From: Perna viridis
Lineage: Eukaryota
DNA: 64,000 nucleotides
Assembly: GCA_037379345.1 (NCBI GenBank)
Contig: CM074516.1
Location: 26,784,001 to 26,848,000 of the forward strand
Reading direction: 5' to 3'
Under the pieces are notes generated by a model that was given only the letters and a program-made list of their open reading frames with translations, searched no databases and was not told the DNA's origin. Below are positions 29,801-64,000 of the stretch, piece by piece (the first letter of the stretch is position 1; every line of letters starts with the position of its first letter). The translations under genes and the position numbers were made by a program.

Positions 29801-30567
29801 CATATAATTGTTTCTCCAGTGGTCTCATGACACAAATCTTTGACTTACTTTCAATGCTTAATGATTCTGATTTTGCAGAAACTACCACATTTTTACTGCT
29901 CTGAACTTTCGATGAATCAACTGTTTTTTTAAATGCATCAACTTTTGTTTTTAAAACAGTCTTGGAGTCTCCCTCATTAACAGTTTCTTGGTCTCCCTTT
30001 AAAAGTTTTATATCCTGTTTCTTTTCTGCAGCATTTTCCCTCACAACCATCAAATTTGGATTGGTCTCTAATCTAACATCTGAATATTTCATTCTAGATG
30101 ACCTTGACTGACCTTGATTATCATTTTGTTTTGACTGTTGAATATGACCTTCAATTTCATTTTTAACTTTGGCCTTTTCAGATGCATTTTCTGTAACAAT
30201 GTTCATATTTGGGTTTGTCTGTAATCTTACATTGATGTATTTCATTCTTGATGATCTCCCTTGGATTCCAGTGTAATCCGTTAGTTTAGACGGACCAGTG
30301 GACTCTATAGCCTCCTTTTGGTTATTTTCTGTAATTCCTGTCAAAGTTGGATTAGTTACATCAGCACTCTTTATTTTGGGTTGCTTTGAATTCTCTTCAC
30401 TGTCTTCCTTTTCAATTTTTTCAGTTTCTTCCATAGGTTTCTCAAGATTATCTTTGTATCCAAAGTTTTCTCTCACAACTTGTAAGTTTGGGTTAGTTTC
30501 TAATCTCACATCTCTACACATTCCATCTTCTGATCTATTTGAGTATTCTGAATAGCCTGCCTGACGT
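26847..30567 (-). CDS. 3.7-kb terminal coding exon of the uncharacterised minus-strand gene
   Basis: Acceptor ttttttcag|ACGT at 30567. The frame stays open to TAG at 26847. Confidence 0.9.
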
Positions 30568-33500: not shown

Positions 33501-36500
33501 ACTTTGATTGCCAACCATACTTCAGAAATGGAATATTTACTAACCTTTAACATGGTTAAGGTTACACTTGCAAAGTGAGAAACCATTTTTTTACCCAACT
33601 TGCCATTCTGGCTAGTGGAATATTGATCTTGCTAGCCAAATACAAATTCAACTAGCCACATTTTTTGGGGTTTTTTTTTCTGTACTATCATCTGTTTTCT
33701 CTTGGATTTAACTATCTTCTGCCTTTCTTTTTCATTTGTTTTTAAATTTATCAAAAACTTTTCCATTTTTCGAATATTCTCTCCCATTTAAGTTGTTCAT
33801 GTACTTTACAGTAACAAAATAAGTACTCCATTTTTGAACTCATATTTTAAGAGTAAAATTACATTTCACCAGATTATGAAACAAGAAAAATACCGGAAAT
33901 TAAAATGGCAGATCATAAACAATGCTTTACTGCGAGTCAATAAAATCGTGCACATTATGCCAAAATTCACTTGACATATTCAAGCTTAACTTCTTAAAAT
34001 GTAGAAAACATATTTTCAATGTATGATGTGAAGGGATGTTTTACTAAATAATCTGTTGGCTGGTTAACTTTCCTTGGAACTTGCCAATGAAATGACTATT
34101 GAACTATTGAAGTTTATGATTGGTAAAAGAAAATACCTGTGGTCAATCACAACAATTGTAACATGTAGTTATTGGGAAGAAGCGGAAGTTACACATAGTG
34201 TGATTCTTTTCAAATCTGTTGTACTGAATATGTAATTTCTGACTCGAAAAAACATAAAACCATGAAACTAAATTTATATGTATCATTATGGAACAGAATT
34301 AAAGAGTATATTGTTGGACCTTACAAATAAATAATTTCCCGACATTTAGTTCAACAAGATGTCTGTAGAACATGTACTGAGCTGATTTATTCTAATTTTA
34401 GTGAATGTAAATTTTGAAAGAAGACTCAGACTTGTCATTATATTTTCCATACCTTTTTCCTTGTAGCAATTTTATATTGTTCAACCACAGCAGCTTCAAT
34501 ATCCTTTTGAGGAACATCCTTCAAGTAACCCAACTCAAAGATCAACTTCTTGGCATTGACAATATGCCCAAGTGCATTCTTCCTCTGAACAAATTCAAGA
34601 AAGTTTTCAGGTTCAGCCTCCACCTCTTGACATTTTGACACTTCACTTGTCTTGGGTTTTGATTCCATTTCCTTACTTCTTTCGATAGTTGAATCACAAG
34701 TGTTGTCCTTCTTGCCACTACCATTTTTCTGCTGAGACTTATCCTCCATACTTTCATTTTTCTTAACTGTTTCATCCTGACTTTCTTCAGACTGATTTTG
34801 AGACCTCCTGCTTGGGATAATGTATTTTTGTATTGGCTTTTGATGGCATGGCCCAGTAGAACTTGTTTGAAGAGCTTTTCCATTACTTCTATCGACTGAT
34901 GATGGTTTTACTTCAATTGAATTTTTCTCATTTTCCTTTATGTTCTTTTTACCCACATGTTTGTCCTTTTCTGTCTCTGATATAGCTGCTGTTTGTGACT
35001 TGACCTCATCAAATACAGTTTTCTTAGAACTAGTGGCTATATTTTCCTTTACCCGTTGTTTATCTGGTGTTTTACTTTTTCTCTTTTCCCTTTGCTTATC
35101 TTTTCTTTTTGAGTGTTCATTTTTTCCACTCAGTTTACTCATACAAACTGGGATCTTTGGTACCACATACTGAGCATCCTGCCCGCCATTAAAATGTTGG
35201 TCCCCTGTATCTTTTACAGACCCATCTCTACTTTTGACATCAGTGTGGTTATCTCCCTTTAAATCCGACGGTACTTGCACAACTTCAAAACTTAGAAGTT
35301 TCTGATTTTCTGAGTTTTCGTTTACTTTCATTTTAGGTATAGAAAGTTCTTTTTTCTCAGGAACAGTTTCTAGCGGATCAACATTTTTATCTACACCATT
35401 ACTTCCTTCATTTAACATATCAATATCAATATGGAGGAAACTTGAAGTCAGTCTTCTATTGTCATTGGAAGGTAAATCAATGTCCAGAAAACTATTTGAA
35501 AAATCAGTATTAAAATTGTCATTTTTATCATCATGGTTTGAACCAAACTCCTCAGTTGCTGTATCTACTTTGATGAAACTTTCTTCAGACAGAGATTTGG
35601 CTTCAGTACATTCTGCATGATCAACTTCATTCAACATTCTTGTCTTGTGTTCTTCTGTTGTTTCTATGACAACACAGTCTTTGTAGACATGCTCTGAAAC
35701 AAAAACTATGATAATTTAATGCAAACACAAAGAAAAACCAATAAACATTAAAAAGAAACAAGCAACTTGTAGCCATATGTCCCAAGCTGCCACAAAAAAA
35801 AAGTTTGAAGTGCAAAACATACCATTACTCTTGAAAATATGTCAAATCAAAAAGGCAACACAATATGATCAACCAAATACCTACAAATATCTAACAAAAT
35901 CTGTAAAGTGGCATCTGAGATGTGTCCACTAAGTGTTCCTATAGTGTAGCATGTACAAGTTCTACAAAGTCCAATAACTCCTGTATAATTGACAGCACAA
36001 TATCATTAACATTACGGTAAAAATATAGGTCATTTAAAACAGGTGGTGTAAATGTACAGATTAATCTTTTATAGAATACACTACATTGGGATATTTTTTT
36101 CCCAACCTTTTACAGTTGAATTGCCTATTTTTATCAATTGTCTTTACTTAACAATTGATTCATAACAATTTACAACTAGTCAAAATAGATATTTTTAAAT
36201 ATAGGAAATAAATTATGTTTCAAATAAGAAATACGAAAACTTGGTTCTAATGAAGACCAGTATAATATTTCGATATCCATAAGCATTTCTGTTTACTCTG
36301 CCTTTGAAATTCCCAATAGTGTATGAAGTCCTTTGTATCAATAACTGTAGCAACATTAGGAAGCATCAAGCTCTTATTTGACACATCATAATTTTCAATA
36401 TCTGTTCTACTACATCAGTTTAAAATAACTGTAAATATCAAAATAATAATTTCAGCATATACAAATGAAAATTGAGGGAATCATCATGGAATTAATACAC

Positions 36501-38983
36501 TGATAATAGGCAGTTATCCAATGAAATTAAACATTGCAAAATATACACTGGAAAGAAGTTTTATCATTTGTACCTGTGCAAAGTAACAATCGCCACACCA
36601 GAGTTCGGATAGATACCTTTAGTAGAAGGTGTTCCAACATTTTCCCATATAGAGGCTGACATGGCTGGACCACTGACTAACACAGGAACATCAGGACTTG
36701 GAGGATTGACTAATACAGCATCAATCTGGTCTGGCGATGTTGGTGATGATGGTCTTCCTGATTTGGTTATTGAACTTTTGTAGCTACCATCTTTGCTTAC
36801 ATCTGGATTCACATTTGCAGAATTGTTAATGTCTGAAATGTTTAATTCCTTTTATATCATGGAATCAAATGAAATCATTAAGATACTAAGGTACTTAGTA
36901 CCGGTAACCTGGTATACCTACATATGTAAAAATACATTTTATAATGATATAATCTATTTTTTCATCTGAAATTTATGAAAAAAACATTTACCTCTTTGTA
37001 CAAGATATCCTACAGAATAAATTACCTACACATCTCCAATTACTCATGACATTTATCTGTATACTAAGCAGTGTCGTGGTGAAGTTACTGTTATTTAAAA
37101 AAAAGTATGAAAGTCATGAAAATGAACTGTAGTTTAGTGTCAACTAAAAATAAAACAGAAGTCCACAACGAAACATGACTTTTTTTCACAAGCAATTGTC
37201 ATCTGGATTGATTGATTGATTAAGGTAAAACATCCTTTGTAGATGTTCCATGCATTTCAGTACAAGGATTGGCCAATCAAACAGAACCTGCTTTGTACTA
37301 GGCTATATCTTTACAAATGTATTGTGTTAGCTCATAGAAGCAAGAACCCACAGGTAGGCACGCCATCCCACTTGGAAACGTCATTCCAACACGCAGCCAA
37401 CCAATCATAACTCATCCCTATAAATACTGTGTGATTGGCAGAGAAGCCTCTATGTCCTAATTTAGTCTTTGGTGTGACTTGGCCATGATTTAACCCAAGA
37501 CTTCCCACCCTCGTGATCTTGAGAATGATTAATTGCATAAGTTGAAGTATCATAATATACTAATCAAGACATGCTATTTTACTAAAATCAAAGAAAACAG
37601 GATCCAGTGATTTTAAAATTGGGCATTACCCCCCCCCCCCCCCACCACCCCCAACCCAAAACAAATAAAAAATAAAAAAATTAAGGTCCAAGGCTATCAT
37701 TGTCCATATCTTGCCCAAATATTGCCGAATCAACAAATTTTCCATCGTAAGTAGGGACTGATCCAACCATTGGAACACCTGCTGGAACCACCAATGAAAA
37801 TATAGTTGGCATACCATAGGGTGTTTCATTATTTCTTCTCCTCTTGGCTTCAGGACTGCTAGTCATTTTCTTCCCTTTAGATCTGGTATGATAATCATGC
37901 TTTCCTTTCTTGTCAGGAGATTTACTTTCATCAGAACAACTTGTATCTTTGCTTTTATCTCCTACAAAAAAAATTAACAACTCTCTAAAAGCTACTTTTC
38001 TTTCACTTGTGTATATACTGAAGAAAGTGAAAACAGAAAACAATGACTCCGTAGTTATAAATGGTGGGTTGGTGCTCCCCACCCTCAATGACCTAGGTCC
38101 CTCTACCCCAACTGAGTGCCCCCATGCCCCTCTTTATAAAGTGCCCTATTGAAATTTTCATCAACAGCCATCACCAAAGTCATGACTTCATGAAATAAAC
38201 ATTCCAAATAACATTGTTTTTTTTTTTGCCACACAGAATGGGTGTAGTAGAACTATTGGACACATCAGAAGGTCTTGAAGTCTTGAACATTATACACTAG
38301 TGTCCTCCTCCTGTATCCTTCAATTTTTAGATTCTAGCAAAAATACTGGGTAATGTGGCCATTAGACAACTAACCTATCAAAGCCAAAAAAAGGCATACA
38401 CATTCTATAGGCCTTTAATGAATGCACACTCTAAATCTCAAACTGGCCCCTTAAAACAATTATATTTGGGTAATGGAAAAGGCATCACACATTACCCCTT
38501 GGGCAAAACAAATAATATTAAGAAACAGTGTTAACAAGGTATTACATGTACTTGAATTGGAATTATTTTGGATTTAAGAAAATAAGTGAAAAAATTATTT
38601 ATCAATCTTACCCCACTAAGGGGCAAGCTGTCATAACTGAAGGGGGGGAGGAGTTGGTGAGTTTCCTTGACTTTTGTTATCCTAATAACCCTACCCATTA
38701 GCCATGCCAGCATGACTAATCCCCTTAGTAAGGGTTAGTTTTACAAATTCATTTTTGGTCATTTTCTTAATTCCAACATAATTCCAAATTCGAACAATTC
38801 CTTGTTTATAGAAATCCCTAAAGACTAACAAAAGTTTAAGTACGGGTATATACACTGACATTAGCATTACCGGTATATAATGAAAGAACGTTGTGAGCAT
38901 GCTCACACACCCCACACACCCACAGGCATACTCCCAGAGTAGTAGGTCTTACCGAACAACTTTGAAACAAATCTGCTGAACAT
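26847..38983 (-). CDS. Uncharacterised protein of about 1829 aa, mostly low-complexity and disordered (K/E/S-rich, with a basic G/R/S/Y-rich C-terminus)
   Basis: Phase-consistent minus-strand chain: 38983-38953 (ATG, MFSRFVSKLF), 37961-37815, 36832-36617, 35693-34453, 32692-32625, 30879-30814, 30567-26847 (5490 nt, TAG stop). The 1224-aa and 399-aa ORFs are far too long to be chance in this AT-rich DNA. No domain was recognised. Confidence 0.8.
31213..32330 (+). mobile_element. 3' tail fragment of a Penelope-derived non-autonomous repeat, split by a MITE
   Basis: 31213-31299 plus 32214-32330 align to 50264-50464 (cctaccggtgcacctggtccatg...gttttccatgtctggtctttgtcc). Confidence 0.75.
31300..32213. 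mobile_element. 914-bp non-autonomous Tc1/mariner-superfamily (pogo/Tc2-like) DNA transposon
   Basis: TIRs CCGTATTTTCTGGACTATAA / TTATAGTCCGGAAAATACAG, with a TA duplication at 31298-99 and 32214-15. No transposase ORF is present. Confidence 0.85.
33001..33228 (-). mobile_element. Inverted copy of the Penelope-derived tail repeat
   Basis: Reverse complement of about 50237-50464 (aggtgcaccggtagggtaagcatcctctgcttttctagaaacacc). Confidence 0.8.
34453..35693 (-). CDS. 1241-nt internal exon of the uncharacterised minus-strand gene
   Basis: tgtttcag|AG start and AAG|gtatgg end. It contains most of the 399-aa ORF. Confidence 0.85.
37207..37520 (-). mobile_element. Degenerate SINE-like element with an (AATC)n tail
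   Basis: The minus strand has a tRNA-B-box-like head (gggttaaatcatggccaagtcacaccaaagact) and ends in caatcaatcaatcaatc. The family assignment is inference. Confidence 0.5.
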
Positions 38984-41779: not shown

Positions 41780-41844
41780 GCGCTGTTAGTGCTGTTTTAC
41801 TGGGACTATCATAACTGTTATTGTAAATTTGGATTTAAATAATC

Positions 41845-43608
41845 ATGAGTATGAGCTCTACAATTTTTGAAATCTTATTTACAACCTATAATGGTGATTT
41901 TTCTGGATTTGAACCTGAGGAAAATGAATGTTTTCTGAAAAGTTGTGACTTATATGAAATTGATAATTGTCTTGATAGAACACTTTCTGTTGTTATAAAA
42001 TTCAACAATCAGAAAATATACAATGAGTTTGAAAAAGTTATTTATAAAAACTATGATAGAAACCTCTTTGAAGAAAAATACAGGAATGGTCAAGTGTTAC
42101 AGTCCTTATTTCATGATTTGAAAGTTGTACATGTATTTACATTGTATGAGTCAACTGGATCATTACATGTACAAGGAAAGGGTTGTGAAAAATGGTTCAA
42201 AGAGATGTTTTCTGTTTTTGGAAACTTACTTCACAATCAAATGAAATATTCCAAAAGTGAGGAAATTGAATCAATGGATAGGACTGATAACATATTATTG
42301 AAATCAGTGGAGGAGTTTAACCTATCAGAAACTGTGATTGATAACAAATTAATATATTTCCATGATGATTCTGAAACTGAGGTAAAATTATTAAATGTGC
42401 AGAATTCTGATACATGCCCTCAGCAAGAAGTTCAGAATTTTATTATGACTTCAACACCAATTTCTACAATGAGAAACAACAATTCTGATGGACATTGTAA
42501 CAAAGCCTTGAAAGCCTTGGAGGAAGAAGTAAGTGACTTAAAAGAGTTAGTGAAATCTCTATTAGCTTTATGTAACAAGCAAGAGCACCCTCCTCAGTTA
42601 ACAGTAAGCTCATCCACACAAACTAAAAATGATATCAAGAAAAAATCTGGAAACTCCTCCACACACACACACAAACAGGGAGTGATGAGAAGCAAAAATC
42701 CAACATAAGCAGACATACTTCAATGGAAATAACAAAAAGATCAATTGGAACACAAATCTATAAACTAAATGAGGTTAATAAAATGCGAAGTTGTTCAGTT
42801 CAAACTGACTCAACTCCAGTAGCTGTAGGTCAGTGTATAGATGATAAAGAAACTATCCTTCAAAACACTCCCAAATGGAAACAGGAGTCCGTCCAAATAA
42901 TGGCCCGATCAAACAGAATTTTTTTCAGCACTGAACAAAATGAAAAAGAAATGCTTCATGATCTTAAGAAAGCTGAAACACTGATTATTGGAAGCTCCAT
43001 GCTAAAGGATATAAATCCATCAGGATTATGGGACACAGACATTAGTACTAACAGGGGCCAACATCAGTAAGCTCATAAAAACTGTACAGGAGAAGGATAT
43101 GTCATCTTATAAATTTATTATAATTCATATTGGAGGAAATGACTTAAAAAGAGGAGAAAGTTATTCGACAATAAGAGACAACTATGTAAGTTTACTGCAG
43201 TTATTAAGGGCTGTATGTAGACCAGACTGTGTTTTAATGATATCAAGCATTACTCCAAGAAAAAAGATTAATGTTGACCCTTTGAATCAAATGTTATGGG
43301 AGATGTGTAGTGACCTGAACATACAATTCTTTGACCATTATGATTACATTCATGACAAAAATGGTAGAGTTTTGCATTATCTGTTCCAAGATGGGTTACA
43401 CTTTTCTAGAAAGGGAACATCTGTTTTCCTACAATCGGTAAACAATTATGTCAATATCCTAGGTTATGATATGAAGAATGGGATTTTTTGTACTGAATGT
43501 GGGGAACCAAACCATAATAGTAGATCTTGCAAGCACAGTCACAAAGTTGTCTGTTATTCCTGTAATTATTATGGCCACAAAGAGAAATTTTGTAATTTTT
43601 ACAGCTAA
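41845..43608 (+). pseudogene. LINE ORF1: coiled coil, SGNH/GDSL esterase and two CCHC zinc knuckles (frameshifted)
   Basis: Split over three ORFs. Motifs are LKALEEEVSDLKELVKSLL, IIGSSML, HIGGND, DGLH, CTECGEPNHNSRSC and CYSCNYYGHKEKFC. Confidence 0.85.
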
Positions 43609-43678
43609 GAATATGGCAAAGAAGAAATAGCCATAGAAAATTTGACAAAAAAACAATAACTATTTTACATTATTCTCA

Positions 43679-46600
43679 TTGTGTCAAGATTTTAACAATA
43701 CTACTTGCACATGTCCTAAATTATTATATGGTTTTCTGCAAAGGAGTGTTAAATATTTTAATGATGATAAAAGTAAGGATAAAGCTATAAATCAGTTATG
43801 TTCGTCATCCACTACAGGAAGGAATTTGTCTGCATGTCAAGATTCTGTAGACACTAATAGAATGAAGGACATGTTAATCACAGATCAGATTAAGTTTAAT
43901 AGTGTAAATGAATTGCCTGTAACTAATTGTACCATAACACCTCCTGAGGTCCTTCCATCATTTGATATAATGTTGCATGTATGTATTATGTTTACTTTAT
44001 CTATGATATCTTGTTTCTATTATCTGAATGTACAGGAAGTTATGACAACTGATCTATATAAGATGTATAATGAAAGTCCATATGGTTTTGGAAAAACAAA
44101 AGGATTGAAAATTTCTTCACATAATGTTAATAGACTGGAAAACAAGTTTGATGAAATTAAGAACACTTTATTATTTCAGAAGAATCAGCCAGATATGATT
44201 GGGTTTTGTGAAACTTTTCTAAATCCAAATACTCTAGATAGAGAACTAATTATTCCTGGTTTGAATCTTGAGAGAAAAGATAGGATGAAACTACATGATG
44301 GTGGTGGTATTTTAATCTTCATGATAATTTGAAATTTTCTAGAAGACCTGATTTAGAAATAGGTGGCATTGAGACTTTGTGGTTAGAGATCAAACCATTC
44401 TGTAAAAGATCCTTTTTCTTGTGTTATGTGTACTTTTGATAATTTGATAATTTTGAAAAAGAAATGAGTATAGCTATGAATATAAATTCTGATGTTATTA
44501 TTATGGGTGATTTTAGCATGAACTTTTTACATCCGTCTAAACCTACACCAAAATTGTTAGATTTCATTAATATGTTTCATCTTCACCAATTGATAACTGA
44601 GCCAACCAGAGTAACAGAAAATACAAAAACTTTAATTGATCATATTTATGTAAGCAATCTAAACATGGTCCTAGATTCTTTTGTTTGCAATTCTGCTATC
44701 AGTGATCATTACCTGGTGAGTTTAGTTAGAAAAGAAAAAGGACATGAATTAAAAAAGACCCATTCAACTATTACATACAGAAATTTTAAGTTTTTTCTTT
44801 CAGATATGATGAATACACCTTTTTACCTTATTGAGCAAGAAAGTGATCCTTCTGTGTGCCTCGATTAATTTTATGGTATGTTAAATTCTGTTCTAAATAA
44901 ACATGCCCCAATTGTAACAAGGAGAGTTGAAAGGATTGGTATAATGATGAAATTTTAAATGCAAGAAACCAAAGGGACAAATTCAAGTCTCTTGGTATGT
45001 GGTCAGAATATAGATTTTGGCGAAATAAAACAACGCTTCTGATAAATAGTGCAAAACAAAATTACTATGTAAATCTTGTAAAGGATAGTAAAGACTCCAG
45101 AAACTTATGGAAGTGCATTCATAGTTTAAATCCTAAAGTCAAATCTCCACCAAAGGAACTGAAACTTGAAAGTGGGGAAAAAGTAGTAGACAAAGAGCAA
45201 GTACCCAATGTTTTCAATGATTACTTCACATCTTGTATTGAGAATTTAAGAAACCAGATAATTGTGCCAAACTATGATTTTCATAAACTACATAAATATG
45301 TTAAGGAAAAGATTAGAAACTATGTTCATAAACAGTTTATGATACCTCCAGTAAAATGTAGTGAAATTTATGAAGCACTATTAAAGTTAGATACAACTAA
45401 GTCATCTGGATATGATAATATTGGGCCTAAGGTGCTGCAATTAACGTCTCATATTATTGCACCAAGTTTTACTTATATATATAATCGTATGATTGATTCA
45501 GGCATATTTCCACATTCACTAAAGATTGCAAACGTAACTCCTGTTTATAAGAGTGGTCAGAAAGATTTAGTATCAAATTACAGACCTATTTCAATACTTC
45601 CTTCATTGTCAAAAATAATTGAACGACATATATCTAATCACTTTTATGAATATTTATCTCAATGGGAATTTTTACATCCAGCTCAGTCTGGATTTAGACC
45701 TAAACACTCCTGCCAAACTGCTCTTGTGAATATTGTGGATAAATGGCTATGTAAGATGAATGATGGAAACATAAATCTGGCTATATTTGTAGACTTTAAA
45801 AAGGCTTTTGATGTTGTTGATCATGATATACTTTGTAAAAAACTAATGATCTATGGTGTAAATGACAGTACTGTGCAATTCTTTAAGTCCTACTTAAAGG
45901 ATAGAAAGCAGCAAGTAAATATTTTAAACACTTTCTCATAAAAAAAAACATATTAGCTTTGGCGTTCCTCAGGGTTCCATACTTGGACCACTTTTATTTG
46001 TTATATTTATTAATGATCTTCCTCTTGACATGCATAATACAAATGTTGATATGTATGCTGATGATACAACCATACACAAATCTTTGAAAAATATTAATTT
46101 ATTACAACAGGATATGCAAGATGATCTAAGAAAAGTTGAAAACTGGTGTAGAAATAACTGTATGTTTATCAATCCTAATAAAACTAAGTATATGATTATT
46201 GGAGCAAGACAAAAACTGTCAAATGTTGATATACCCTCCTTAATAGTTAATGATAAAGCTTTAAAATTTTCATCATGTGAAAAACTACTCGGTGTAAAAA
46301 TTGATGATACTCTAAGCTGGAAATGTCATGTTGATCATATATGCTCTAATATTTCATCAAGATTGTATCTCCTAGCAAAGATTAAGAAATATCTGAACAT
46401 TGAAACGAGAAAAACTTTCTATAATGGGTACATTCTTCCACTTATTGACTACTGTTTTATTGTATGGAGTGGCTGTGGCTCTGAAGGATTAGACAAAATT
46501 CTTAAACTCCAAAAACAGGCTGTCCGCCTCATTTTAGATGCTGAACCCTTTCTTCCATCAGAACCCTTGTTCAAAAAATTAGGAATCATGAAAGTAGAAA

Positions 46601-46890
46601 CAAGGATAAAATATCACAAATACCTATAAATCTATAAATCTCTCCATGGGGAAACACCAAGCTACATATCAGAAAAGTTTAACTATGTTTCAAGAAACAA
46701 ACCTCATTCACTAAGAAATGCTGAACAAGAAAATTTGATAATCCCAAACATTAAAACTGAACTTTTCAGACATTCATTCATACATTCTGGGTCTGTCTTG
46801 TGGAATAAGTTACCCATACATTTATGTAATCAAGCCACTGGCAACTCATTCAAAATCAATCTAAAGAAGTACCTTAACACTTTTGAATAG
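43679..46890 (+). pseudogene. LINE ORF2: AP-endonuclease and reverse transcriptase (disrupted)
   Basis: APE motifs: ISSHNVNRL, GFCETFL, IIMGDF, IDHIYVS, SDH. RT motifs: [57 protein letters not shown]. There are several frameshifts and stops (for example TAA at 46627). Confidence 0.93.
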
Positions 46891-51732: not shown

Positions 51733-54700
51733 ATGATGCCAGGTCAACCAAAATCCTCAAGAGGTCCTACTACATCGAAAAGTGCAAGTCATGGCTGTTC
51801 CAAGGGTCAAAGACTCGGGAATCCACAAGGACCAAAAAGTGCTAACAAACAAGGACAAAAGAGTGGAAACCAAAGCTCAAAAAATAAAAGTCAAGGGAAT
51901 CCACATGTTGCAAAAAGTGGCCAAAGACAAAATCAAAAAATAAGTGAGAAAGGCCCTCAGCCAGCAGGCCAAAATAGGCCAAGAACAGAAAGCCAGCAAC
52001 AACATCAGAGGCAGAAATTTAGAAACCAGAATGTACAAAATAGGTTGAACCTCGGAGATCAGTCTAAGCCAAAACAAGCCAGTGGAGGCCATCAACAACA
52101 ACAAAAGCCAAATTGTGGAAGCCAGTTTCAACAACAAAGACCTTATGATTGTCACCATCATCAAGAACAGAAGCCAAACTGTGGAAATCAATATCAGCTA
52201 CAAAGATCTAATAGTGGAAACCAGCATCTACAACAGAGACCAAATAGTGGGAACCAGCATCTGCATCAGAAGTCAAATGGTGGAAACCAGTATCAACAAA
52301 ATAGATTGAACCCAGGAAACCAGAATCAACAACAAAGACCAAATATTGGCAACCAGCATCAGCAAAAAAGGCCAGATAATGGAAACCAATGTCAACAACA
52401 GCAACCTCATGGTAGCAACCAGCATCGACAGCAGAGAATTAATTGTGCTAATCAGCATCAACAACAGAGACCTAATAGTGGAAACCAGTATCAACAACAG
52501 GGACCCAATAGTGGAAACCAGTATCAACAACAGGGACCCAATGATGGTAAAAAGCACCAAAAAGAGACACCCAGTGGTGGTAACCAATATCAACAACGAA
52601 GACCCAATGGTGGTAACCAGCATCAACAGCAGAGACCCAATAGTGGTAACCAGCATCAACATCAGAGACCCAATGGTGGTAACCAGCATCAACATAAGAG
52701 ACCCAGTTGTGGTAACCAGCATCAACAACAGAGACCCAATAGTGGTAACCAGCATCAACAGCAGAGACCCAATAGTGGTAACCAGCATCAACATCAGAGA
52801 CCCAATGGAGGTAACCAGCATCAACAACAGAGACCCAATAGTGGTAACCAGCATCAACATAAGAGACCCAGTGGTGGTAACCAGCATCAACATCAGAAAC
52901 CCAATGGTGGTAACCAGCATCAACAACAGAGATCCGATTCTGTACATCAAAAACAAAGAAGAAATCATTTGGTATGATATACATGTCTAGAATAGAATTT
53001 CTCTTGTATGAATGGTGTGCAAAACTTTTTTACAGAATTGTGCTTTTAGTGGAAGTTTTTGTAAGAATCAGGTAAAATGAGAAAAATCAGAAACATGCTT
53101 GTCAAAAACCCACCAATCTGACATTATAGTTCACTCAATGATGCTTTCTCTATTTTGAAAGACTATTATTTGATCACTGGATTTGCTCAGATATTTTTCA
53201 ACTGAAAAATTAGATTTTTGTCTGAGTTATCTGCCCTTGAAATGTTCCTTTTCAGTGCATTTCATTGAAGTTACTATTCAATTTACAAAATGATATGGAA
53301 AATCTTGTCTTTTTCCTTGATTCTGATGGTGCAACTAGTCAAATTAAACTTTCAAAATGGTGTTTTTTTCATAATATGTTTCACCAATATATGATTTCCC
53401 TCAAGTATTCAATTTTTCAGCTACCTTATCAGCCATAATTTCAGTTGGGGAAGGATTTACGGAAAACCTCAATTTTTTTTCATGAAACCAGCAGGCCCTG
53501 TTTCTTGACAGTCAAATACTGCTTTAATAGACATTAATAACTTTGTGGCTTAAGATTTGTCATTGTGAATCCTTTTTTTCTGCACTTTTGGTTATGGAAT
53601 TTACATTGAAATTGGGGGGTGGGGGGCTTAATTTGTGTTTTAGTGCATCTTTGTGTTAAATGGATATTCCATCGCTACTCTATAGATATTTTCTTTATGT
53701 GTTTTTTTAGCGATTTAACAGACCTGTTAGATGTATTTCTACAATCCAATCTTCTTTACCAGAAAATAGATTAACAAAGGCACTGCTAGAAGGTATGTGG
53801 TGAGATATTTTACATTCATAAATGACAGTAGTCAGTAGGTGTTGGGTACTGTAGAAATAATTTAATTAATTCATGGATTCCAATTTTTGTGGACAAGGAA
53901 GGAAACATTCTTGGATTCTTGAATTTTTGGTTTTTAAGTTTTCAGTATACACATCAACAGGAATCTACTATTTGTTGGGAACATAATTTTGTGGTTTGAC
54001 CTAACCACGAAAATTGGTGCCCCACGAACGATAGTATTTTCACAGTAATTCTTCTATGTTTACCATGAGATTTTGATGTTTGTAAAATATTTCTAGAATT
54101 ATAGACACATACATATGTATTTGGACTTTGCTTTAAATTTTTCATAGGTGTACATGGCTTGTCCTGCTCTCTTGTACTACAGTATTTTACACTCCGTTTT
54201 TTAATCATGATGAATCTTCTCCTCTGAAGTTACATGTATGCAGATTAACTCTGACCAACTTTAACCATTATGCATTTGTTTTTAAATACCATGAGTATAC
54301 CAGTTGGGAAACAAAAATGGCATGTCTATTTATAAAACCCAAGGAAAAACCACTTTTTTAAAGCCATATCTTAAAAACTTCAGAGATATAGAAAAATAAA
54401 GGTCAGCTTTTTGTTGTTGGGGGCATAAAGAACTCTACAAAGCTCTACAATTTGGTTGACGTTACAAGGTGCAATTCAGTATGAGTTGTTATCCTTGAAA
54501 GGTGAAAATTTATGGGTTTTTTTTTGTTTTTTTTTTTGTAGTTTTTAGCAATTTTTAGCATCAGAGCCGATAAAAAAATCTTTTTTAAGTATTGATATCA
54601 TCCATATGATAAGGCCTACAAAAATCTTCTTGTTTCAAGCTATAGGACAACTCCATATTGCCCTAAAAAGGCAAAAAAGTGACTTGCTAATATCTTGAAA

Positions 54701-57700
54701 CCATGACAACTAGGAAAAAAACTTTCAGTTGATGAAATAATCCTATGATAAGGCCTTCAAAAAGTTTACAATTAGTTATTGTTGGGTATTTGTAAATAAA
54801 AAAATAATTCATTTATTGCTTTTCTTGATTAAATATTATGACCACAAGATGCTATTTTTTGTTTTTTTATATGGTATTTAGGTTCCATGCTTTTATTATT
54901 ATTTTCAGAAACATGATTTTTTAAATGAAATTTGGTAGGGAGGTGAGAAGAGGGTTATGTAAAGCAACTTTAATTGTTAAAACTGTATTCTATTTACAGA
55001 TGAGAGAGGCTTTAACCAACCAGAAAACCAGAAATTGAACCAATTGAGGACATTTGTTACTAATCAGAATGATAAAACAAGAAATCAACTATATACTTCT
55101 GGATACAACCAGTCTAGTCAATTGCAAGGATACAGACAATTTGGTACACCTTTTGATAACAGAAGGTTTGGTCTACCTTCTGATAAAAGGCAAATCAGTC
55201 CACCTTTTAACAGCAGACAATTTGGTCAACCTCCTTATAACCAGTATGTTTGTCCACCACCTTCTGAGAAGCAATTTGGTCCACTCCCTGATAATAGGCA
55301 ATTTGTTCAGCCACCTGATAACAGGCAATTAAGTACACGTTCTGAAAACAAGCAACTTAGTGCTCCACCTGATAGGAGGATATTCCATCCACAACGGTTG
55401 GGACAAAATATCCCAACAAAGTTAAGAGGACAAATTGGCTCTTCCGATCCATTTGACAACAAACAGTTTTGTCAAACTAAGGAACAAAAGGAATTTTATT
55501 TGTCACTTGAAAATGAATCATTCTATCCACCTGGAAAAGAACAAGTCAAACCTCATTTTCACCAAAGCAGGACAAGTCAGCCTGTGAGTGGATTTATTGA
55601 TCACCATAAAGGTAAATTAAGAAATGGCTAATGAATGTGGGCTCTATATGCTGATATATAGATCTAGATTAGAACTATATATTAGGTTTATGTTTTATCT
55701 CAGCAATAGCAAGATATTAAATATGTATTTCTTAAAAAAAAAGAAAAACATAATAGCCAAGCATTTAGGAACTTTTTACATTCAAGTACTCATGAAAAAT
55801 TGTAGCATATATGGACATATAACTTAAAATCATATGGAAAAATATATTCAGAATTTGTATAGAAGTGAGGAGATTTTTTTTTGCGTGTGCTGTTAAATCA
55901 TATTTTGCTGTTTGAAAAAAAACACACCTAAAATAGATGTGAACCGCTTGCTTGCCTCCACTTCAAATTTGGCATATAAAGTTATCCCTGATATGTTTGC
56001 TCTAAAATTTATGTCCCTTTTATCAAACAGACAACAAACATGTCTGTTATTGTAGAATGTATCATTAAACTCAACTTTTAGATAGCTTAAAGAACTTTTT
56101 TGCTACTTTCCAGGTTCATCTTTCAATAATAATGCAGGAAATGGTGAACAATTTGTTAACCAGCAAACATTTGGATATGGCCACAATGAAGAGGAGATGG
56201 AATTTGAAGAAGTTTGTGAAAAAGACCAGGAGGATTTGGAAGAGGAGTTTGATGAAAGTCATGTATTTTTTGAAAAACGCCATGATGAAGAAGAGGTGTA
56301 CTTTGAGCATGAAGATCAGGAGGGATTTGAAGAGGAATACATAGAAAATTTACAGGAAACTGAAGAGGAATACCCAGAAAATTTGCAGGAATTTGAAGAG
56401 AAATACACAGAAAATTTGCAGGAATTTGAAGAAGTTTATGATGAAGATCAAGAGGAAATAAAAGAAGACTATGAAGGAAATCAGGAAGAATTTGAAGAAA
56501 GCCATGATGAAAATCAAGAGGTATTAGAAGAAGGTTGTGATGAAAACCAGGAGGAATTTGAGGAAAGCAATGGTGAAAACCAGGAGGAATTGGAGGAAAG
56601 CTATGGTGAAAACCAGGAGGAATTAGAAGAAAGCTATGGTGAAAATCAGGAGGAATTTGAAGGAGGTTATGATGAAGATCAAGAGGAAATAAAAGAAGAC
56701 TATGAAGGAAATCAGGAAGAATTTGAAGAAAGCCATGATGAAAATCAAGAGGTATTAGAAGAAGGTTATGATGAAAACCAGGAGGAATTTGAGGAAAGCA
56801 ATGGTGAAAACCAGGAGGAATTAGAGGAAAGCTATGGTGAAAACCAGGAGGAATTAGAAGAAAGCTATGGTGAAAATCAGGAGGAATTTGAAGGAGGTTA
56901 TGATGAAGATCAAGAGGAAATAAAAGAAGACTATGAAGGAAATCAGGAAGAATTTGAAGAAAGCCATGATGAAAATCAAGAGGTATTAGAAGAAGGTTAT
57001 GATGAAAACCAGGAGGAATTTGAGGAAAGCAATGGTGAAAACCAGGAGGAATTAGAAGAAAGCTATGGTGAAAATCAGGAGGAATTTGAAGGAGGTTATG
57101 ATGAAAACCAGGAGGAATTTGAGGAAAGCAATGGTGAAAACCAGGAGGAATTAGAGGAAAGCTATGGTGAAAATCAGGAGGAATTTGAAGGAGGGTATGC
57201 TGAAAACCTAGAGGATATTGTGGAAAGGTATGATGAAGATAGGGAGGACTTAGAAGATTGGCATAAAGAAATTCAGGAGGAATTGATGGCAGGTCATGCA
57301 GTCCGGGAAGTATTTGAGGATACCTATGATGTAAATGAGGAGGAAGTTGAAGAAGGGTATGATGAAAATGGTGAGGACTTTGGTTGTGGTGAAATTCAGG
57401 ATAATTATTTTTCAGAAGTTGAAATGGAAGATCGTACTGAATTTGTTGAGGATTATGGTTATAGCAATGATGGAAATGAACATAAAAGTCATGATACTAT
57501 CGAAAAGGATACCAAGATTATAGAAAAAGGTCCTGGTGTCAAGGACCATAATGAAACCATTGAAGACACTGACCAAGATCACAACATTTTTGATGATGGT
57601 GAAGGTCATGGTTGTCAAGAAAATGAACTTGGTTTAAAACAGTCTGAAGAAAGCAAAATACACAAAATATCAGAATCTAAAACCAAGCAGGAAAAAGATG

Positions 57701-60700
57701 AAAAATCTGACTTGTCGTGCGACACTACATCTTTAAGTCAGTTAAGTGTATCAGGCCAATATTTCAGAAATGAAGTTCAATTGACAAAACAAATGAAAAT
57801 CTTTGATGAGGGAAAGAAGTCATTTGTTGGTAACAGAACAAATAGATTTATACCTGGTGATAATGTGACTTGTGGAATAGTTGGTAAAGATGATGCAATG
57901 ACATATGATGTCAAGTCAGATAGTCAAGATGAAAATATCAAGGAAAGAGAAAGGCAGATGATGTTAGATTATCAAGAGGATGAAAATTTAAAAGAGAGAG
58001 AAAGAATAATGATAAAGGAACTGGTTCAAGGTGAAAAGATGTCAAGATCATCTACAAAACATACAGAAGACCAAGAAGATGAAAACATAAAGGAAATTGA
58101 GAGGAAAATGATGGAAGCATGGATTCAAGAACAACACAAATCTGAAATTTCCATTGACAAAACTTCACCAAGAAGCAATTTAGATCCTCTTCATCTTGAC
58201 TATCAAGAGCATGATCCTGAACTACTTCAAGACATTTCAATAAATACCTATATCTGTGCTGAACTCACCAAAGAAAGATGCAAAAATGACAATTGTAATA
58301 ATCATCACATATCTAGCTGTATTCCGTACCTTTGGCAGGTAAAAATGTTTGACAGATGGATACCATTTACAACTGGGGAGAATGAAGTTGTTGAGAAAGC
58401 CTTCTGTAACCTTCAGGATAGTGTAGAAAATCAGGTAATTAAAGCAATTATATAAACAGGAACATTTTCATGACAGTTTTGGTTTTGTTATTTTTGTGTA
58501 AGAAACTGCAACACAAAAATAAAATATTGCAGATATTAAATGTCTAAGAATTGTGACTGTCTGTTTGAAATAAAATCTTCAATTAAGAAAAATTAATTTT
58601 CTTTATAGAAGATTTCATTTCAAACAAACATCACAAAAATTCTAAGACTATAATACATGTAAAAATGGATTGAATATAGAAAAACCACAAAATTACCAGT
58701 TTACAGACATTAAAAGTTGATTATTTTTCAGTTTCTGACATATTTTGGGTATCAAGGTCAACTTGCTTATTTCTTTTAAATCAAAAGAATTTGTGTTTTG
58801 ACTTTTAATGACTATCTGTAATGTAAAAATAGCAAAAGCTTGAATATGTATACAAATGCTATATTTACAGTACTTTCGTTTTTAGGTTTCACATGGTCAT
58901 CATGTGACACGATAATCAATTTACATTTAGTTTCTATTCTATACTTTCTTTTCATTATATAGCTAATTTTGCAACTAAAAGATGTAGAGTCACTGAACTG
59001 ACCCACCCTTGTCCCTCTCTTATTTGATGGATCAATGATCAAGTACCAACTGATCACTATAAATTGATGGCTAATTACCGATTTGACCACACTTTTGTTA
59101 TGATAAATTACAGATGATCAATTCATGTAAATTTCAGAATTTTCTTTGAAATTCACTCAATGCAAAGCTATTTCAAATATAGTTAAAATTTACTTAAATT
59201 CATTTGAAAAATGGAAGTGACGACCTGTCAATTAAACTGATCAATTGATTACTGATCGCTGTGATAGTTTCACCAATAGGTTAATGTACTGTAATTTTGT
59301 ATTGGTTTTAAGTATATTGGCTCTCTATATTTTATACACATCTTATCTCTGGGGATTGTACATTTAGGTCTTTTTTAAGTCTTATATAATTGTAGGCTTC
59401 GTCTATGTAGGATGGATCTATTTGTTCTAAAATAACATCTGATTTTGTCAATAATGCAGTGAATGCACTGCTATGTTGTTACATCTCAGATGTCTCGACC
59501 AAGGGGTTAAAAGTTCAAACAATCACTTCCTAATTGCATACATCATTTTCCATTTACACAACTTCCGACAGTACCATTTAAGGAGGTAGACTTAGGGTAA
59601 ATGGACACAACTCTTACAAATCATTGGAATGTTTGTATTCAGCATTTTACATCAATCTTATGTAAGCATCTAATTAACTTGGATTCATTTTATTCTGCTT
59701 CAAGTAAAAGCTTAAGAGGCTTTTGTGAAATTGAACATAATACAAACATATCACTGATTTCATGAGTTATGCCACTTTTCCTAGGTCTACCTCCTTAAGC
59801 CATTCATGTTTCAGAGCATGTACATTTAAAGGATGTCACTAATGCTCCGTCCCTACAGACTGAAAATTGTTGAAGTTTTTTTTGTTATTAGTAATGTACT
59901 TATGAATTTCCTATTTCTAAAACAACTGAAAAGAGAGTGTTTGTTTTGAAAAGTTCAATTTGTTATATTTTTAAGTTTTTTCTGTGTTTCCATGATCTGA
60001 AATACATAAATTGAAATACTGGTGTTCGGTAAATAGTATGTACTTTTTGATATATCAGAGATAGGGATTTGGTTGGCAATATACCTGTAGCAGCATCTGC
60101 ATGTATGTACTAAAACTTTCTTGGAATAATTCCAGATGTTGTACCATGGTGAAAGGTACAGCTACCAGGTTACCTTTGGCAAGATGGAGGTTTCCATTAA
60201 AAGTTCTGAAGGACATTCAGCTCTTGGTGATGGCCAACAGTTTAACATACGTCGACTCACAACACCTTCATTTGCTGACAGGAGAACTTCTAACCATTGT
60301 TACTCAACTCAATGGAGATGGTATTGGAGAAATGATATCCAGAAGTGGGAGATTTATGACAGGGTGTGTATGTCTCACAAAATGAATATATTCCAGAGGT
60401 ATTTTGACCTTATATATGTATGGTCCAGACTTTATGTATGATATTTTTTCCAAAATTCCTGTGTGTCCAACTACCAGTATACACATATTGTGAAAATCAG
60501 TCAATTTGATTATTATTTCCTTCAAGTGTTACAAAATGCAACTTCATTTTTTTCTTGATGTGCCATCATTTCAAACAAAATAATCATTGTAAACAATTTT
60601 TTTAATTATTTTACAAATTTTGACAGAATATGATTTGATATATGGTTGACCCTGAAAACAGGGGGTAGAAATGAAAAAAAAAATGCCCAACTGGTCAAGT

Positions 60701-63700
60701 GGACAAGTTTTTCTGAAACTGAACTGGCCAAGAATGAAATTTAATTGCCTTAAGATATGTTTAAGGGATCATACATCCCAAATGAGTTGGCCTAGCCATA
60801 AGCTCTGTTTGAATATAACTTGCCCATCATGAAATTTGCTTGCTGCAGCACAGTGGGAAAAAATTGCAGAACATTTTTGCTAAGTTTAAATACATCATAG
60901 GTATGAACATATATAAAAGCGATGATAATTTTGTAACATTTTCCTCAAATCCATCCTCAACTCAATTTTTTACCAATCAAATCCCTTGAAATTAAGGATT
61001 TAATGAAAATCTCAATTTGATATTTATGAATTCCAGGCATGATGCCTTACTTTTATAGTGGCTCTCTACATATTTTAAACATCTTGTCTTTTGGGATTGT
61101 ACATTTAGTTTTATTTAAATTTATTCAATAAAAATTGCTGAAGTTTTATTTTTGTTTTTTTGGGTTTTTTTTGTCAAATATATATGAATCTATTTTCTGC
61201 TCACTGAGTTGTTGGTAGATATCCGAGAACTTACATATACCATCTCAGAATTATTTAAATTTGAGCAGTTAATTGCTGGATCATGCATTAAAAATAAGAG
61301 CAATGAAAATACTGATTGATGAAAACACACTTTTTCTTTGATATGAGGAGAGTCTGACCTGTAAGAGGAGGAAGTTGAATATGTACAGTGTATTAATATT
61401 TTTAAAAATAATAATGTCTTTGACAGTTTTAGTAAACAAGGATTTATTTCCTTCATAATTAACAAAACTTTAAGACACAAGCTAAAAACATTTTTACAAA
61501 ATTAAAAAAAAATATCCTCGCTTTGTATTACCCTTGGTATTACAAGTTAACTTCCTGTCAGTGTGAATTAAGGCTCTCAATGCTTCTAAAGTCAAAGGTT
61601 AAATTTTGGATTCACTACCATTATGAGGACTTCATCCTCTATTATACCTCTTAATTCTAGTAACTGTCTTATCTACATTGTAGGATATATTTCAGTTCAC
61701 ATTAGAAAAGAAGTACCTATCAAAGCAGAAAAGTTATCTGTTTTATAAAGATACTTATGTCCATATCATGTATAAGATAGACTTTAAGAACTTTACTCAA
61801 ACCAATATGGAGACTGGTGAAGTCAGTCAAGTTATCAGACGACCTTACTTTGTGTCAAGAGAAGATGTGACAGAGCTAAAATTGTAAGGTTTAAGCTAGA
61901 CATTCTTACTTTGATATCCTTTTATGAGATATATGCTCATTGTAAATCTAGCTACTTAGCTTCTTTTAAGCATAAATATCCTTTTTTAAGTATTCTTGCC
62001 TGAAAACTGACTAAATGAGCACTAGTAAATGGAGAGAATTTCTAAAGAGTGGAGTTTTCCTTAGCAAGAAATTGTCTTCAACCACTCATGTAACCAATAT
62101 AAAACTTCTTAACTTCCTATTTTAGAAATGTGACATTTACATGCCCTCTCTGTGAAATTTAACTTTCCAATGTTTGTTATTTCAAGTTAACAATCTTATT
62201 CTAGCCCAGAAACAGTATCATTTCCTGTAGCCATGACAACACCCAAGCCAAACCATTTCAACACCTGGGATTGTGCGCATGATTTTGAACTGATCGACCT
62301 TGATCTATGTGGAAGAGAATACCAAGATGTCTTATGGACTTTTCAAGAAACAATGGCATTAAGACGGTTTCAAATAAAAAATGTTTTTCGAATACAAAAC
62401 AGGAAGTTGTGGAGCGAGTATGATATGTGAGTGATGAAATACTCTCTCCTATTTGCTTGGGACATGATAACCACTCCTGCAACAGGAAATATCTCACCCT
62501 ACCTCTGTTCCTTTGAGGTTCTGGGATATTTTACATTTTATTGCTGGCAGACACATATGTCCTATTAATTTTTGTCAGCAAAGTAATCCTAAGTGTGTAG
62601 CTTATTGAGGTAAAAGGGACAGTTTGGTGAATATTTTCATTAACAAAATCCACTTTTTTTATTCATAAATAAACATGGCTACCATTAGTAAAAATGGATA
62701 GTAGTGGTCAAACAACAGATTTTTTGTAATTTTGTTCAAAAACCATTTGATTCAGACATATGCTTACTTGGGTTTTAGTATTCAACATAAAATAATGTAA
62801 TCATGAAGACATTTTCGTGAAAATCTGTCAACCCTTTTCATAATTATTAACCTTTATATTGTTCCCTTTTGCTTTTATGATGTTTTCATATCTAAAGATC
62901 AACTCCTCTGAAACTTCAAGTACCAATATTTTGAAACTACAGGAATTTTAACCTAAATTCTCTTTACAAATGGTCCAATTTTTGTGTTGCTCAGCAGGTA
63001 GCAGAAATAATAGAAGTATAGGGGATTCCCTAATTGATAAACTTTTTGTTCAAAATTTTTTCACTCCTCCAGGTGAGCGATTCAGGTTCTTTAGACTCTC
63101 TAGTTTATCAACTACTGAATCTATCCTTGTAATCATCTTTTTGTATAGGTATATTTGTTTCATTCTTTATGGAATCTTACTTGGTTTTAAGTGTTACCCC
63201 AAAAATGATTAATATGTTTTTATTTTTATAATGTAGGAAACGGAAGCACATGCTTGCAGATGCAGAACAGGATGTAATGGACCATGAATTTAACGAACTA
63301 GATTTGTTCCATGGCACTGACTCCTTGAACACATGTAGAGGAATTTGCGTCAACAATTTTGATTTTCGTATTAGTGGTCGTAATGCCACACTTTATGGAC
63401 AAGGATCTTATTTTGCAACAAGAGCTAAATTAAGCCACAGCTATACTAAAACTGACTCTCAAAAAGATGTCAGGTTTATGTTCCGGGCCAAAGTTCTAGT
63501 TGGCCAATACACTAAAGGTAATCCATCTTTAACAAGGCCACCAAACATTCCAGGAAAGATTCACAAGTTGTTTGATTCTTGTGTAGACAAAGAAGACGAC
63601 CCTTCCATATTTGTGGTCTTTGACAGGAGCCAATGTTACCCTGAATACTTGATTATGTACACAGACAATGAGGTCAGTTCTGTCAATCCAAGATTAATGG

Positions 63701-64000
63701 AGACACAAGGAATTAAAACTACAAATAATGCTACCATGCTGCCAGACAATGGGTGTTCTATGAACAAAACTAATGAAATAGTTTATCCTGAGACTGTTAT
63801 CCACCAGTCTGGCCCTTTAGTTTACCCTGAGTCTGTTACCCACAAGCCTGGCCAAATAATTAATCAACAACAGACAAATATGCAACCATCAGGTCCAGAA
63901 GTTGCAACTAATATGCATAAGCCTTTGGTTTATCCACAGCAAACAGGCATAAAGGAGCAGCATTCAAGTACCATTACAGAAACTCTGAAGCCTCTACAAT
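51733..64000 (+). CDS. PARP7/PARP12/ZAP-family mono-ADP-ribosyltransferase (CCCH-WWE-WWE-PARP) with a long repetitive N-terminus; 3' end beyond the window
   Basis: Phase-consistent exons: 51733-52971, 53711-53792, 55000-55611, 56114-58434, 60136-60363, 61684-61883, 62205-62426, 63237->64000 (>1889 aa). CCCH finger CAELTKERCKNDNCNNHH. WWE1 PYLWQV..RWIPF..VEKAF..IRRLTT. WWE2 WRWYWRND..WEIY..LEKKY..YKIDF..QTN..TG..VIRRP. PARP motifs RIQNRKLW, LFHGT, FDFRISG, YGQGSYFA, SHSY, MFRAKVLVG, FDSCVD, PSIFVVF, YPEYLIMY. Confidence 0.92.
52100..52935 (+). repeat. Coding 33-bp tandem repeat (RPNSGNQHQQQ, about 25 units)
   Basis: Unit agacccaatagtggtaaccagcatcaacaacag, with the 3' copies nearly identical. 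Confidence 0.95.
53046..53386. mobile_element. Second, 3'-truncated copy of the 11395-11789 MITE-like element
   Basis: Colinear similarity, for example tttgtaagaatcagg.aaaatg.gaaaaatcagaaacat and ttccttgattctgatggtgcaa. Confidence 0.75.
53847..54047. mobile_element. Short TA-flanked MITE (tactgt...acagta)
   Basis: Terminal TACTGTAGAAATA / TATTTTCACAGTA with internal ccacgaa motifs. Confidence 0.55.
54190..54770 (-). mobile_element. Degenerate inverted HINE-family fragment
   Basis: Reverse-complement similarity to 25910-26160 (for example aactttcagttgatgaaataatcctatgataaggcc). Confidence 0.5.
55128..55397 (+). repeat. Coding 27-bp degenerate repeat (DNRQFGxPP, about 10 units)
   Basis: GYRQFGTPF DNRRFGLPS DKRQISPPF NSRQFGQPP YNQYVCPPP SEKQFGPLP DNRQFVQPP DNRQLSTRS ENKQLSAPP DRRIFHPQR. 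Confidence 0.85.
56200..57380 (+). repeat. Coding acidic 33-bp repeat (ENQEEFEESYG) with a 231-bp higher-order unit
   Basis: tatgatgaagatcaagagg occurs at 56437, 56668 and 56899, a period of 231 = 7x33. Confidence 0.95.
59582..59794. mobile_element. 213-bp palindromic MITE with a TTAA duplication (Kolobok-like GG...CC ends)
   Basis: TTAA|GGAGGTAGACTTAGG...CCTAGGTCTACCTCC|TTAA. Same family as 12384-12595, in inverted orientation. Confidence 0.8.
63237..63660 (+). CDS. PARP catalytic core (H-Y-I triad)
   Basis: Manual translation (not in the ORF track because there is no stop in the window): ...LDLFHGTDSLNTCRGICVNNFDFRISGRNATLYGQGSYFATRAKLSHSYT...DPSIFVVFDRSQCYPEYLIMY. Confidence 0.95.

Follow-up and report, generated by a model that had tools for sequence, protein, structure and literature searches.

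The PARP12/ZAP-derived gene of Perna viridis

PARP12 (ARTD12) and ZAP/PARP13 combine a single CCCH finger, two WWE domains and a PARP domain with an N-terminal domain of four CCCH fingers, which PMC8102003 treats as the defining feature of both proteins. They reach stress granules and viral RNA via the folded zinc fingers and the WWE domains that bind poly(ADP-ribose) (PAR). The gene considered here is encoded on the plus strand at the 3' end of a 64,000-nt stretch of Perna viridis DNA (assembly GCA_037379345.1, contig CM074516.1, positions 26,784,001-26,848,000, forward strand), hereafter the window, to which all coordinates refer unless another contig is named. It is a spliced mussel PARP12/ZAP-derived gene with the layout CCCH-WWE-WWE-PARP; unlike PARP12 and ZAP, it lacks the four N-terminal fingers and carries about 1170 residues of low-complexity repeats ahead of the folded part, including two arrays of 33-bp units, Q and E, whose products have opposite charge. 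The reading that we hold, with slightly better than even confidence, is that of a PARP12/ZAP-derived gene without the N-terminal fingers, in which two separately grown minisatellites serve as charge blocks.

Eight exons with GT-AG ends yield 1889 stop-free codons in the window, and the stop codon of the gene lies just beyond the window end. Exon 4 (56114..58434) encodes a lead-in, the E array, an acidic tail, a linker, a fifth-type CCCH finger (58255..58308; C-x7-C-x4-C-x3-H in translation, with equal spacing in Mytilus homologs) and the start of WWE1. Exon 5 (60136..60363, delimited by GT-AG ends and homology) contains the end of WWE1 and the start of WWE2, and exon 6 (61684..61883) encodes WWE2 with a Tyr and a Gln nine residues apart as in ZAP. 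A Pfam search identifies WWE2 with 24.8 bits (cutoff 21.1), WWE1 stays under the Pfam cutoff (E 0.014), and the WWE region matches the ZAP central domain (7sz2) with E 1e-7. In WWE2 the WxWYW motif is kept and the Tyr/Gln pair aligns to 7sz2 at E 0.014; the mapping of the Tyr, Gln and Trp residues to Y659, Q668 and W611 of ZAP, numbered as in PMC11731017, is by spacing only. The PARP domain starts in exon 7 (62205..62426) and continues in exon 8 (63237..64000) with the catalytic core and a low-complexity tail. The Pfam PARP profile is detected with E 4.5e-18, and among solved structures the catalytic exon matches human PARP12 best (E 7.7e-36), with which the LFHGT, GSYFA and DPSIF motifs align letter for letter; we take these motifs to carry the His-Tyr-Ile triad of the mono-ADP-ribosyltransferases. 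The central domain of the PARP12/ZAP family, one CCCH finger and two WWE domains, is accordingly present. The C-terminal tail also includes a 39-bp repeat in two copies (63779-63853, plus strand), and in the Mytilus proteins P0005 and P0010 this C-terminal end is likewise occupied by a repeat, of 9 residues.

Upstream of exon 4, the coding part of exon 1 (51733..52971; an open reading frame (ORF) with a GT donor, the first ATG being assumed) encodes a K/G/Q/N-rich start and the Q array. Exon 2 (53711..53792) comprises 82 nt, and exon 3 (55000..55611) contains a DNRQFGPP-like repeat of 27 bp, the third in the gene and decayed (about 55132-55330); the introns on either side of it are in phase 1, as are those of the repeat exon in the sister paralog described below. 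In Logan contigs from four runs, two of which have near-equal depths and are possibly one data set, the joints between exons 1 and 2 and between exons 2 and 3 are found in three of the four runs and that between exons 3 and 4 in all four; contigs cover and join exon 3, exons 1-4 never fall in one contig, and the joints from exon 4 to exon 8 are based on GT-AG ends and homology. No run that contains the sequence is registered as RNA, which carries no weight in either direction; the case for splicing is made by the joints themselves. The exon depth in these contigs is about 5-14, which is not a measure of expression; an intronic interspersed repeat (53015-53380) shows a depth of 3,000-13,000.

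The closest full-length relatives of the gene are Mytilus proteins (70-78% in the catalytic exon). In a tree of 31 rows, all of them bivalve and with no vertebrate outgroup, the window gene is nested among mytilid homologs with the full layout, and its sister, with support 98/93, is a paralog on another contig of the same genome (C12, near 17.71-17.73 Mb); the branch of the window gene is 0.5 long vs 0.2 for the sister. The C12 paralog shares the 3' exon layout and a G/N/Q-rich repeat exon with the window gene, and the 3' part of exon 4 aligns with its big exon at 36% over 271 residues, but it has a neutral 8-residue repeat, GNQGYGGP, no acidic array, a zinc-finger domain and an RGG stretch. 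Searches for an ortholog of the window gene found none: exon 4 had no match among longer proteins, and its post-array part had 27 matches in a 50%-identity library, none above 43%. PARP7/TIPARP and PARP11, with CCCH-WWE-PARP or WWE-PARP layouts, likewise have no four-finger domain, but the window gene differs in having two WWE domains; since it also comes from within the mussel PARP12-like clade, its likeness to PARP7 and PARP11 comes from loss.

Absence of the N-terminal zinc-finger domain

Searches with tblastn and phmmer and a genome search did not find the four-CCCH N-terminal domain in the window, and none of the 8 genome matches to this domain lies on the contig of the window gene. The domain is present in 40 of the 42 homologs of at least 900 residues, in all 21 Mytilus homologs and in the C12 and C3 paralogs of the same genome. 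Given its absence, the window gene is filed here as PARP12/ZAP-derived and not as a full member of the family. In the C12 paralog, the domain is located inside the exon that matches exon 4, and homology resumes right behind it, at about residue 520 of exon 4; in the window gene, exon 3 is spliced directly to exon 4 in all four runs, with no zinc-finger exon between them. The simplest reading is that the domain, about 235 codons in the relatives, was lost by an in-frame deletion near 57670-57705 (plus strand, approximate), with the E array upstream of the site, although the upstream anchor is weak (E 0.023). The original prediction, made from the letters of this stretch, had dealt with the two arrays and left out this loss as well as the second mussel lineage discussed below. 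A further exon with the zinc-finger domain is found on contig C12 (17,750,122-17,751,933, plus strand); the next 30 kb contain no WWE or PARP match, and downstream a reverse transcriptase ORF occurs four times in tandem, at a spacing of about 4.1 kb.

Two in-frame arrays of opposite charge

The Q array (52108..52932, plus strand) consists of 25 units of 33 bp without indels, with the consensus PNSGNQHQQQR and about +1 charge per unit, and the E array (56335..57258, plus strand) consists of 28 in-register units of 33 bp with the consensus SYDENQEEFEE and about -5 per unit, flanked by decayed units from about 56137 to about 57495. Tandem Repeats Finder reports 33-bp arrays at 52089-52932 and 56420-57369, the latter with a higher-order period of 231 bp, that is, 7 units. 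Head-to-tail units, a period that is a multiple of 3 and a spliced open frame identify both as coding minisatellites, and neither core pattern occurs elsewhere in the genome (5 of 5 Q and 14 of 14 E matches lie here, exact matches only). Thus, the common 33-bp period claimed in the original prediction holds, in frame for both arrays, as does their placement in different exons, namely exons 1 and 4, with about 3.4 kb between them (about 3.5 had been given) and three intervening joints seen spliced. The units quoted there are each present once (52900 and 56566) and match at 20 of 33 bases by direct count, but neither is the consensus, and SNGENQEELEE, taken as representative of the E array, is a minor variant (4 of the 28 E units). 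The E array is strongly acidic, as stated (146 D+E and 6 K+R in 308 residues), whereas the Q array, which had been called basic, is only mildly so (29 K+R and 5 D+E in 275 residues); it is Q/N-rich, with up to 44 Q+N per 80 residues, and includes 7 aromatic residues in 275. Pfam Mucin-like and Apolipoprotein matches on the arrays were set aside as composition effects.

A similar charge layout in a second mussel lineage

The charge difference extends beyond the arrays, with a net charge of +58 for residues 1-644 and -197 for residues 645-1176. Among 37 rows, a Q+N-rich (at least 0.41) basic stretch together with an acidic block (-0.37 or lower) is found only in the window protein and in P0003, P0005, P0010 and P0011, which form one Mytilus ortholog group. 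These four proteins (e.g., LOC134693865, LOC127720278) resemble the window protein in having an N-terminal basic Q/N/G/P repeat (about +0.10 per residue) and a long acidic block, but differ in that the repeat has a period of 20, the acidic tract is aperiodic and is located elsewhere in the protein, behind a GIVGKDD marker, and the zinc-finger domain is kept. A single clade for the window gene and the four Mytilus proteins is rejected (p-AU 0.0005 in the approximately unbiased (AU) test, with 15 rows, a quick tree and a long branch in play). As judged from these comparisons, the separate Mytilus lineage gained the basic-repeat-plus-acidic-block layout independently, with unmatched periods, which suggests that the charge of the blocks, not their register, could matter. 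The second lineage lends indirect support to a possible role of oppositely charged blocks in tuning condensation or the binding of PAR/RNA.

Origin of the arrays and alternative explanations

Arrays of this kind usually originate by local expansion, and new repeats are frequent in this family, with periods of 8, 8, 10, 20, 9, 10, 14, 32 and 13 among the 90 proteins scanned, and with different periods among paralogs. Separate local expansion of the Q and E arrays is therefore, in our judgement rather than by computation, the probable course of events, and the likeness between the arrays is likely to reflect chance and a common Gly/Asn/Gln vocabulary. For the E array, the sister paralog offers a candidate local single-copy source. 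The homologous exon of the C12 paralog has an acidic, NQ-containing stretch at its start. Of the 664 in-frame 33-mers in this exon, the one encoding NNDDSKEEVDD matches the E profile best (7.3 bits, 18.4/33); it sits at the 5' end of the exon, as expected, and aligns with the final E unit. The best Q 33-mer scores 1.5 bits and 16.4/33 on this profile, and no Q unit is among its 22 best matches in 422 kb, with the qualification that an acidic profile favours any acidic stretch by composition. At the position of the C12 acidic stretch, the Mytilus proteins P0004 and P0006 have NQ(S/F)EEDGF. A collinear-looking DNA alignment between the acidic tail of exon 4 and the C12 exon was not above shuffles (p 0.34) and was discarded. 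The RGG-coding DNA of the C12 paralog (L002 near 3600, minus strand), read in a shifted frame, gives EEEVEE, as is also found in the window tail (57331-57354); a charge flip by frameshift is conceivable from this reading, although the DNA alignment is not above shuffles.

The original prediction had proposed a shared origin of the two arrays. In the form considered here, there was one 33-bp ancestor: part of the exon-1 array was copied to exon 4, drifted to acidity by C-to-G and G-to-A changes and was then homogenised; we regard this possibility as tenable but doubtful. Against a null that permutes the codon columns of the E units and keeps the best among 11 in-frame registers, the mean identity of the whole arrays is 15.04/33 vs 13.07+-0.72 in shuffles (p 0.011); distinct units (24 Q, 16 E) give p 0.021, one higher-order unit with its 7 classes p 0.004 and the four Asp-3 classes p 0.051. 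None of 306 natural acidic 33-mers reaches the mean E-to-Q score, and arrays seldom agree in period (by a hand count, 2 of the 36 pairs formed by 9 independent arrays from relatives). The relic unit SNDGNEHKSHD (57463..57495, plus strand), found after the fact, fits both profiles (16.6/33 to Q, 18.9/33 to E), its Q score being reached by 3 of 3048 control 33-mers. The link to the proposed local source is itself weak: the C12 stretch resembles the E array with p 0.008-0.02 at fixed register and 0.08-0.21 at the best of 11, and the acidic tail resembles C12 at the protein level (p 0.0015) and not at the DNA level, retains one short piece after composition correction (E 0.023) and gives no signal with five Mytilus proteins. 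All these observations weigh against separate growth of two charge blocks, and so do, with respect to the role of the charge, the small sample of two lineages and the fact that selection on the repeat residues is not established (omega at kappa 2 of 0.64 for Q, p 0.025, and 0.75 for E, p 0.19, and near 1 for both at kappa 4). Further points in favour of one ancestor are the best unit pair (22/33, p 0.018), the SNG unit taken by itself (p 0.0004, one of 7 classes tried), the agreement of the best register with the one originally proposed, in the overall comparison and in most subsets, a DNA signal that exceeds the protein signal, as expected from descent, and Asn at position 2 of the outermost relics, at 56137 and 57463, which may be old.

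On the other side, the consensus units match at 15/33 (p 0.46), and the whole-array excess rests on the five distinct Gly-3 E units, which give p 0.0014 alone, whereas the other 11 give p 0.22. Nine decayed flank units give p 0.82, a comparison of low power in which two of the nine are cut out of register. Protein-level comparison yields p 0.17-0.33, and a gapped comparison of Q with E yields p 0.15, the same as for Q with the 24-bp repeat of C12; among five arrays, with 8 units sampled from each, none of the 10 gapped pairs is below p 0.05. The two arrays have no exact 10-mer in common, about 18 of 33 positions would have changed, and 30 of 383 natural Q/N/H-rich 33-mers, a few of which belong to the tail of the E array itself, match the E profile no less closely than the Q units do (in these natural controls the windows overlap and are not independent). 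Moreover, the C12 local source outscores Q, and the pair was chosen post hoc from at least three arrays in the gene. The joint coincidence of period and similarity, of the order of 1 in 1000 before this choice of pair, is suggestive and falls short of proof. The shuffle check that the original prediction invited gives p 0.004-0.02 for the whole arrays and 0.05-0.8 for subsets, consensus and protein: the observation is real but had been overstated, and the likeness is at best modestly above chance. Shared origin, for its part, keeps the equal period, a DNA-level p of about 0.01-0.02 and one relic, and is weighed down by the failure of the consensus, the protein and the non-Gly units and by the single-copy E source in the sister paralog.

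Neutral repeat growth in a relaxed duplicate, with the arrays as tolerated filler whose charges have no specific role, is a rather unlikely explanation but a real rival, because selection on the repeat residues is not clear. The effect suggested by a simple dN/dS (nonsynonymous to synonymous substitution) ratio below 0.5 shrank once transition bias was allowed for, and array omega is then not clearly below 1; the long branch, the lost conserved domain and the low contig depth of the exons, which does not measure expression, point the same way. However, the frame is intact over all 1889 codons, the catalytic and WWE motifs are kept, and the charge layout has arisen again in a second lineage. 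A composite of the preceding readings, in which one unit was copied and drifted to the opposite charge, the blocks replaced the fingers as a PAR/RNA-sensitive switch, and the second mussel lineage arrived by another route, seems quite unlikely. Finally, the register-matched pairing that had also been proposed, considered here as Q and E units that zip unit by unit in a coiled coil or zipper opened by PAR or RNA, is highly improbable: the equal period, the similar copy numbers (25 and 28), the aromatic or aliphatic residues at E-unit positions 2 and 9 (7+4 spacing) and a single-sequence model with the E array as long helices speak for it, but at about +1 vs -5 per unit, unit-by-unit pairing cannot neutralise the arrays, the Q unit contains Pro and Gly and almost no hydrophobic residue, so that the complementary charge and hydrophobic face of a hendecad coiled coil or charge zipper are not found on both partners, the Mytilus proteins of the same layout pair a 20-residue basic repeat with an aperiodic acidic tract, and the helix model is of low confidence (mean predicted local distance difference test score, pLDDT, 61; predicted template modelling score, pTM, 0.23) and was not used as structural evidence.

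Proposed history and mechanism

For the preferred reading of a fingerless PARP12/ZAP derivative with two separately grown charge blocks, the following history may be suggested. The gene would have originated by duplication from a C12-type gene, probably followed by the in-frame deletion of the zinc-finger domain in the big exon; the likely starting point of the E array is the acidic, NQ-containing stretch at the 5' end of this exon, and that of the Q array is the G/N/Q/P-rich N-terminus of the family. According to PMC11731017, the ZnF5-WWE1-WWE2 module of human PARP13 binds PAR and suffices for granule entry, and PMC5656619 describes the movement of human PARP12 to granules via WWE-PAR binding; PAR-led recruitment via the kept WWE module is therefore expected. 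The CCCH-WWE-WWE part of the mussel protein would bind PAR and deliver the enzyme to granules. Residues 1-644, Q/N-rich and weakly basic, would stand in for the lost fingers through self-association and loose RNA/PAR contact, the acidic block formed by residues 645-1176 would damp these contacts by plain electrostatics, with no matched register needed, and the PARP domain would mono-ADP-ribosylate targets in the granules. A partial analogy is provided by the acidic disordered tails, such as that of Hfq, that according to PMC5606850 act as nucleic-acid mimics: in both cases, an acidic disordered block and a basic nucleic-acid-binding part would belong to one chain. In the window protein, however, the acidic block is a 300-residue minisatellite, and autoinhibition is hypothetical.

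Related loci and genomic neighbourhood

On contig C12 (17,699,771-17,714,006, minus strand), the 3' part of the sister's PARP exon is present in three repeats with 6.9-kb spacing, and the two extra copies are partial and contain a stop. On contig C3, a broken KH-type PARP12-like copy (661-668 kb, plus strand), with its own 27-bp and 33-bp arrays nearby, lies upstream of an intact-looking one (700-716 kb). The Mytilus PARP12-like proteins P0002, P0004 and P0006 are annotated with an N-terminal Tpt1/KptA RNA 2'-phosphotransferase domain, to which an hnRNP-Q acidic domain is added in two of the three; the Tpt1/KptA annotation means either that two NAD-using domains are fused or that the records have an error in common.

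Elsewhere in the window, a dynein heavy chain gene has its final coding exon at 20484-20840 (plus strand; Pfam Dynein_C), and this exon provides a synteny marker. It is followed by a gene without Pfam match whose low-complexity exons are very large, at 1243 and 425 codons (26847-38133, minus strand), and by a remnant of a retroelement of the long interspersed nuclear element (LINE) type (41839-46890, plus strand). The remnant includes an ORF with a GDSL esterase and a zinc knuckle, as well as a reverse transcriptase that is divided between two frames near 45930.

Implications

The open-access literature contains no report that we could find of this gene or of domain loss in bivalve PARP12, and nothing on same-period arrays of opposite charge. 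If the common ancestry of the two arrays were true, which the present data cannot show, they would clearly exemplify how a single minisatellite can yield both charge signs in one protein. In its own right, a transcribed fingerless relative of PARP12 and ZAP with long blocks of opposite charge offers a natural setting in which to ask whether such targeting can be taken over or adjusted by disordered charge blocks. Given two mussel lineages with separate gains and unmatched periods, the charge of the blocks, not their register, would be the feature of interest.

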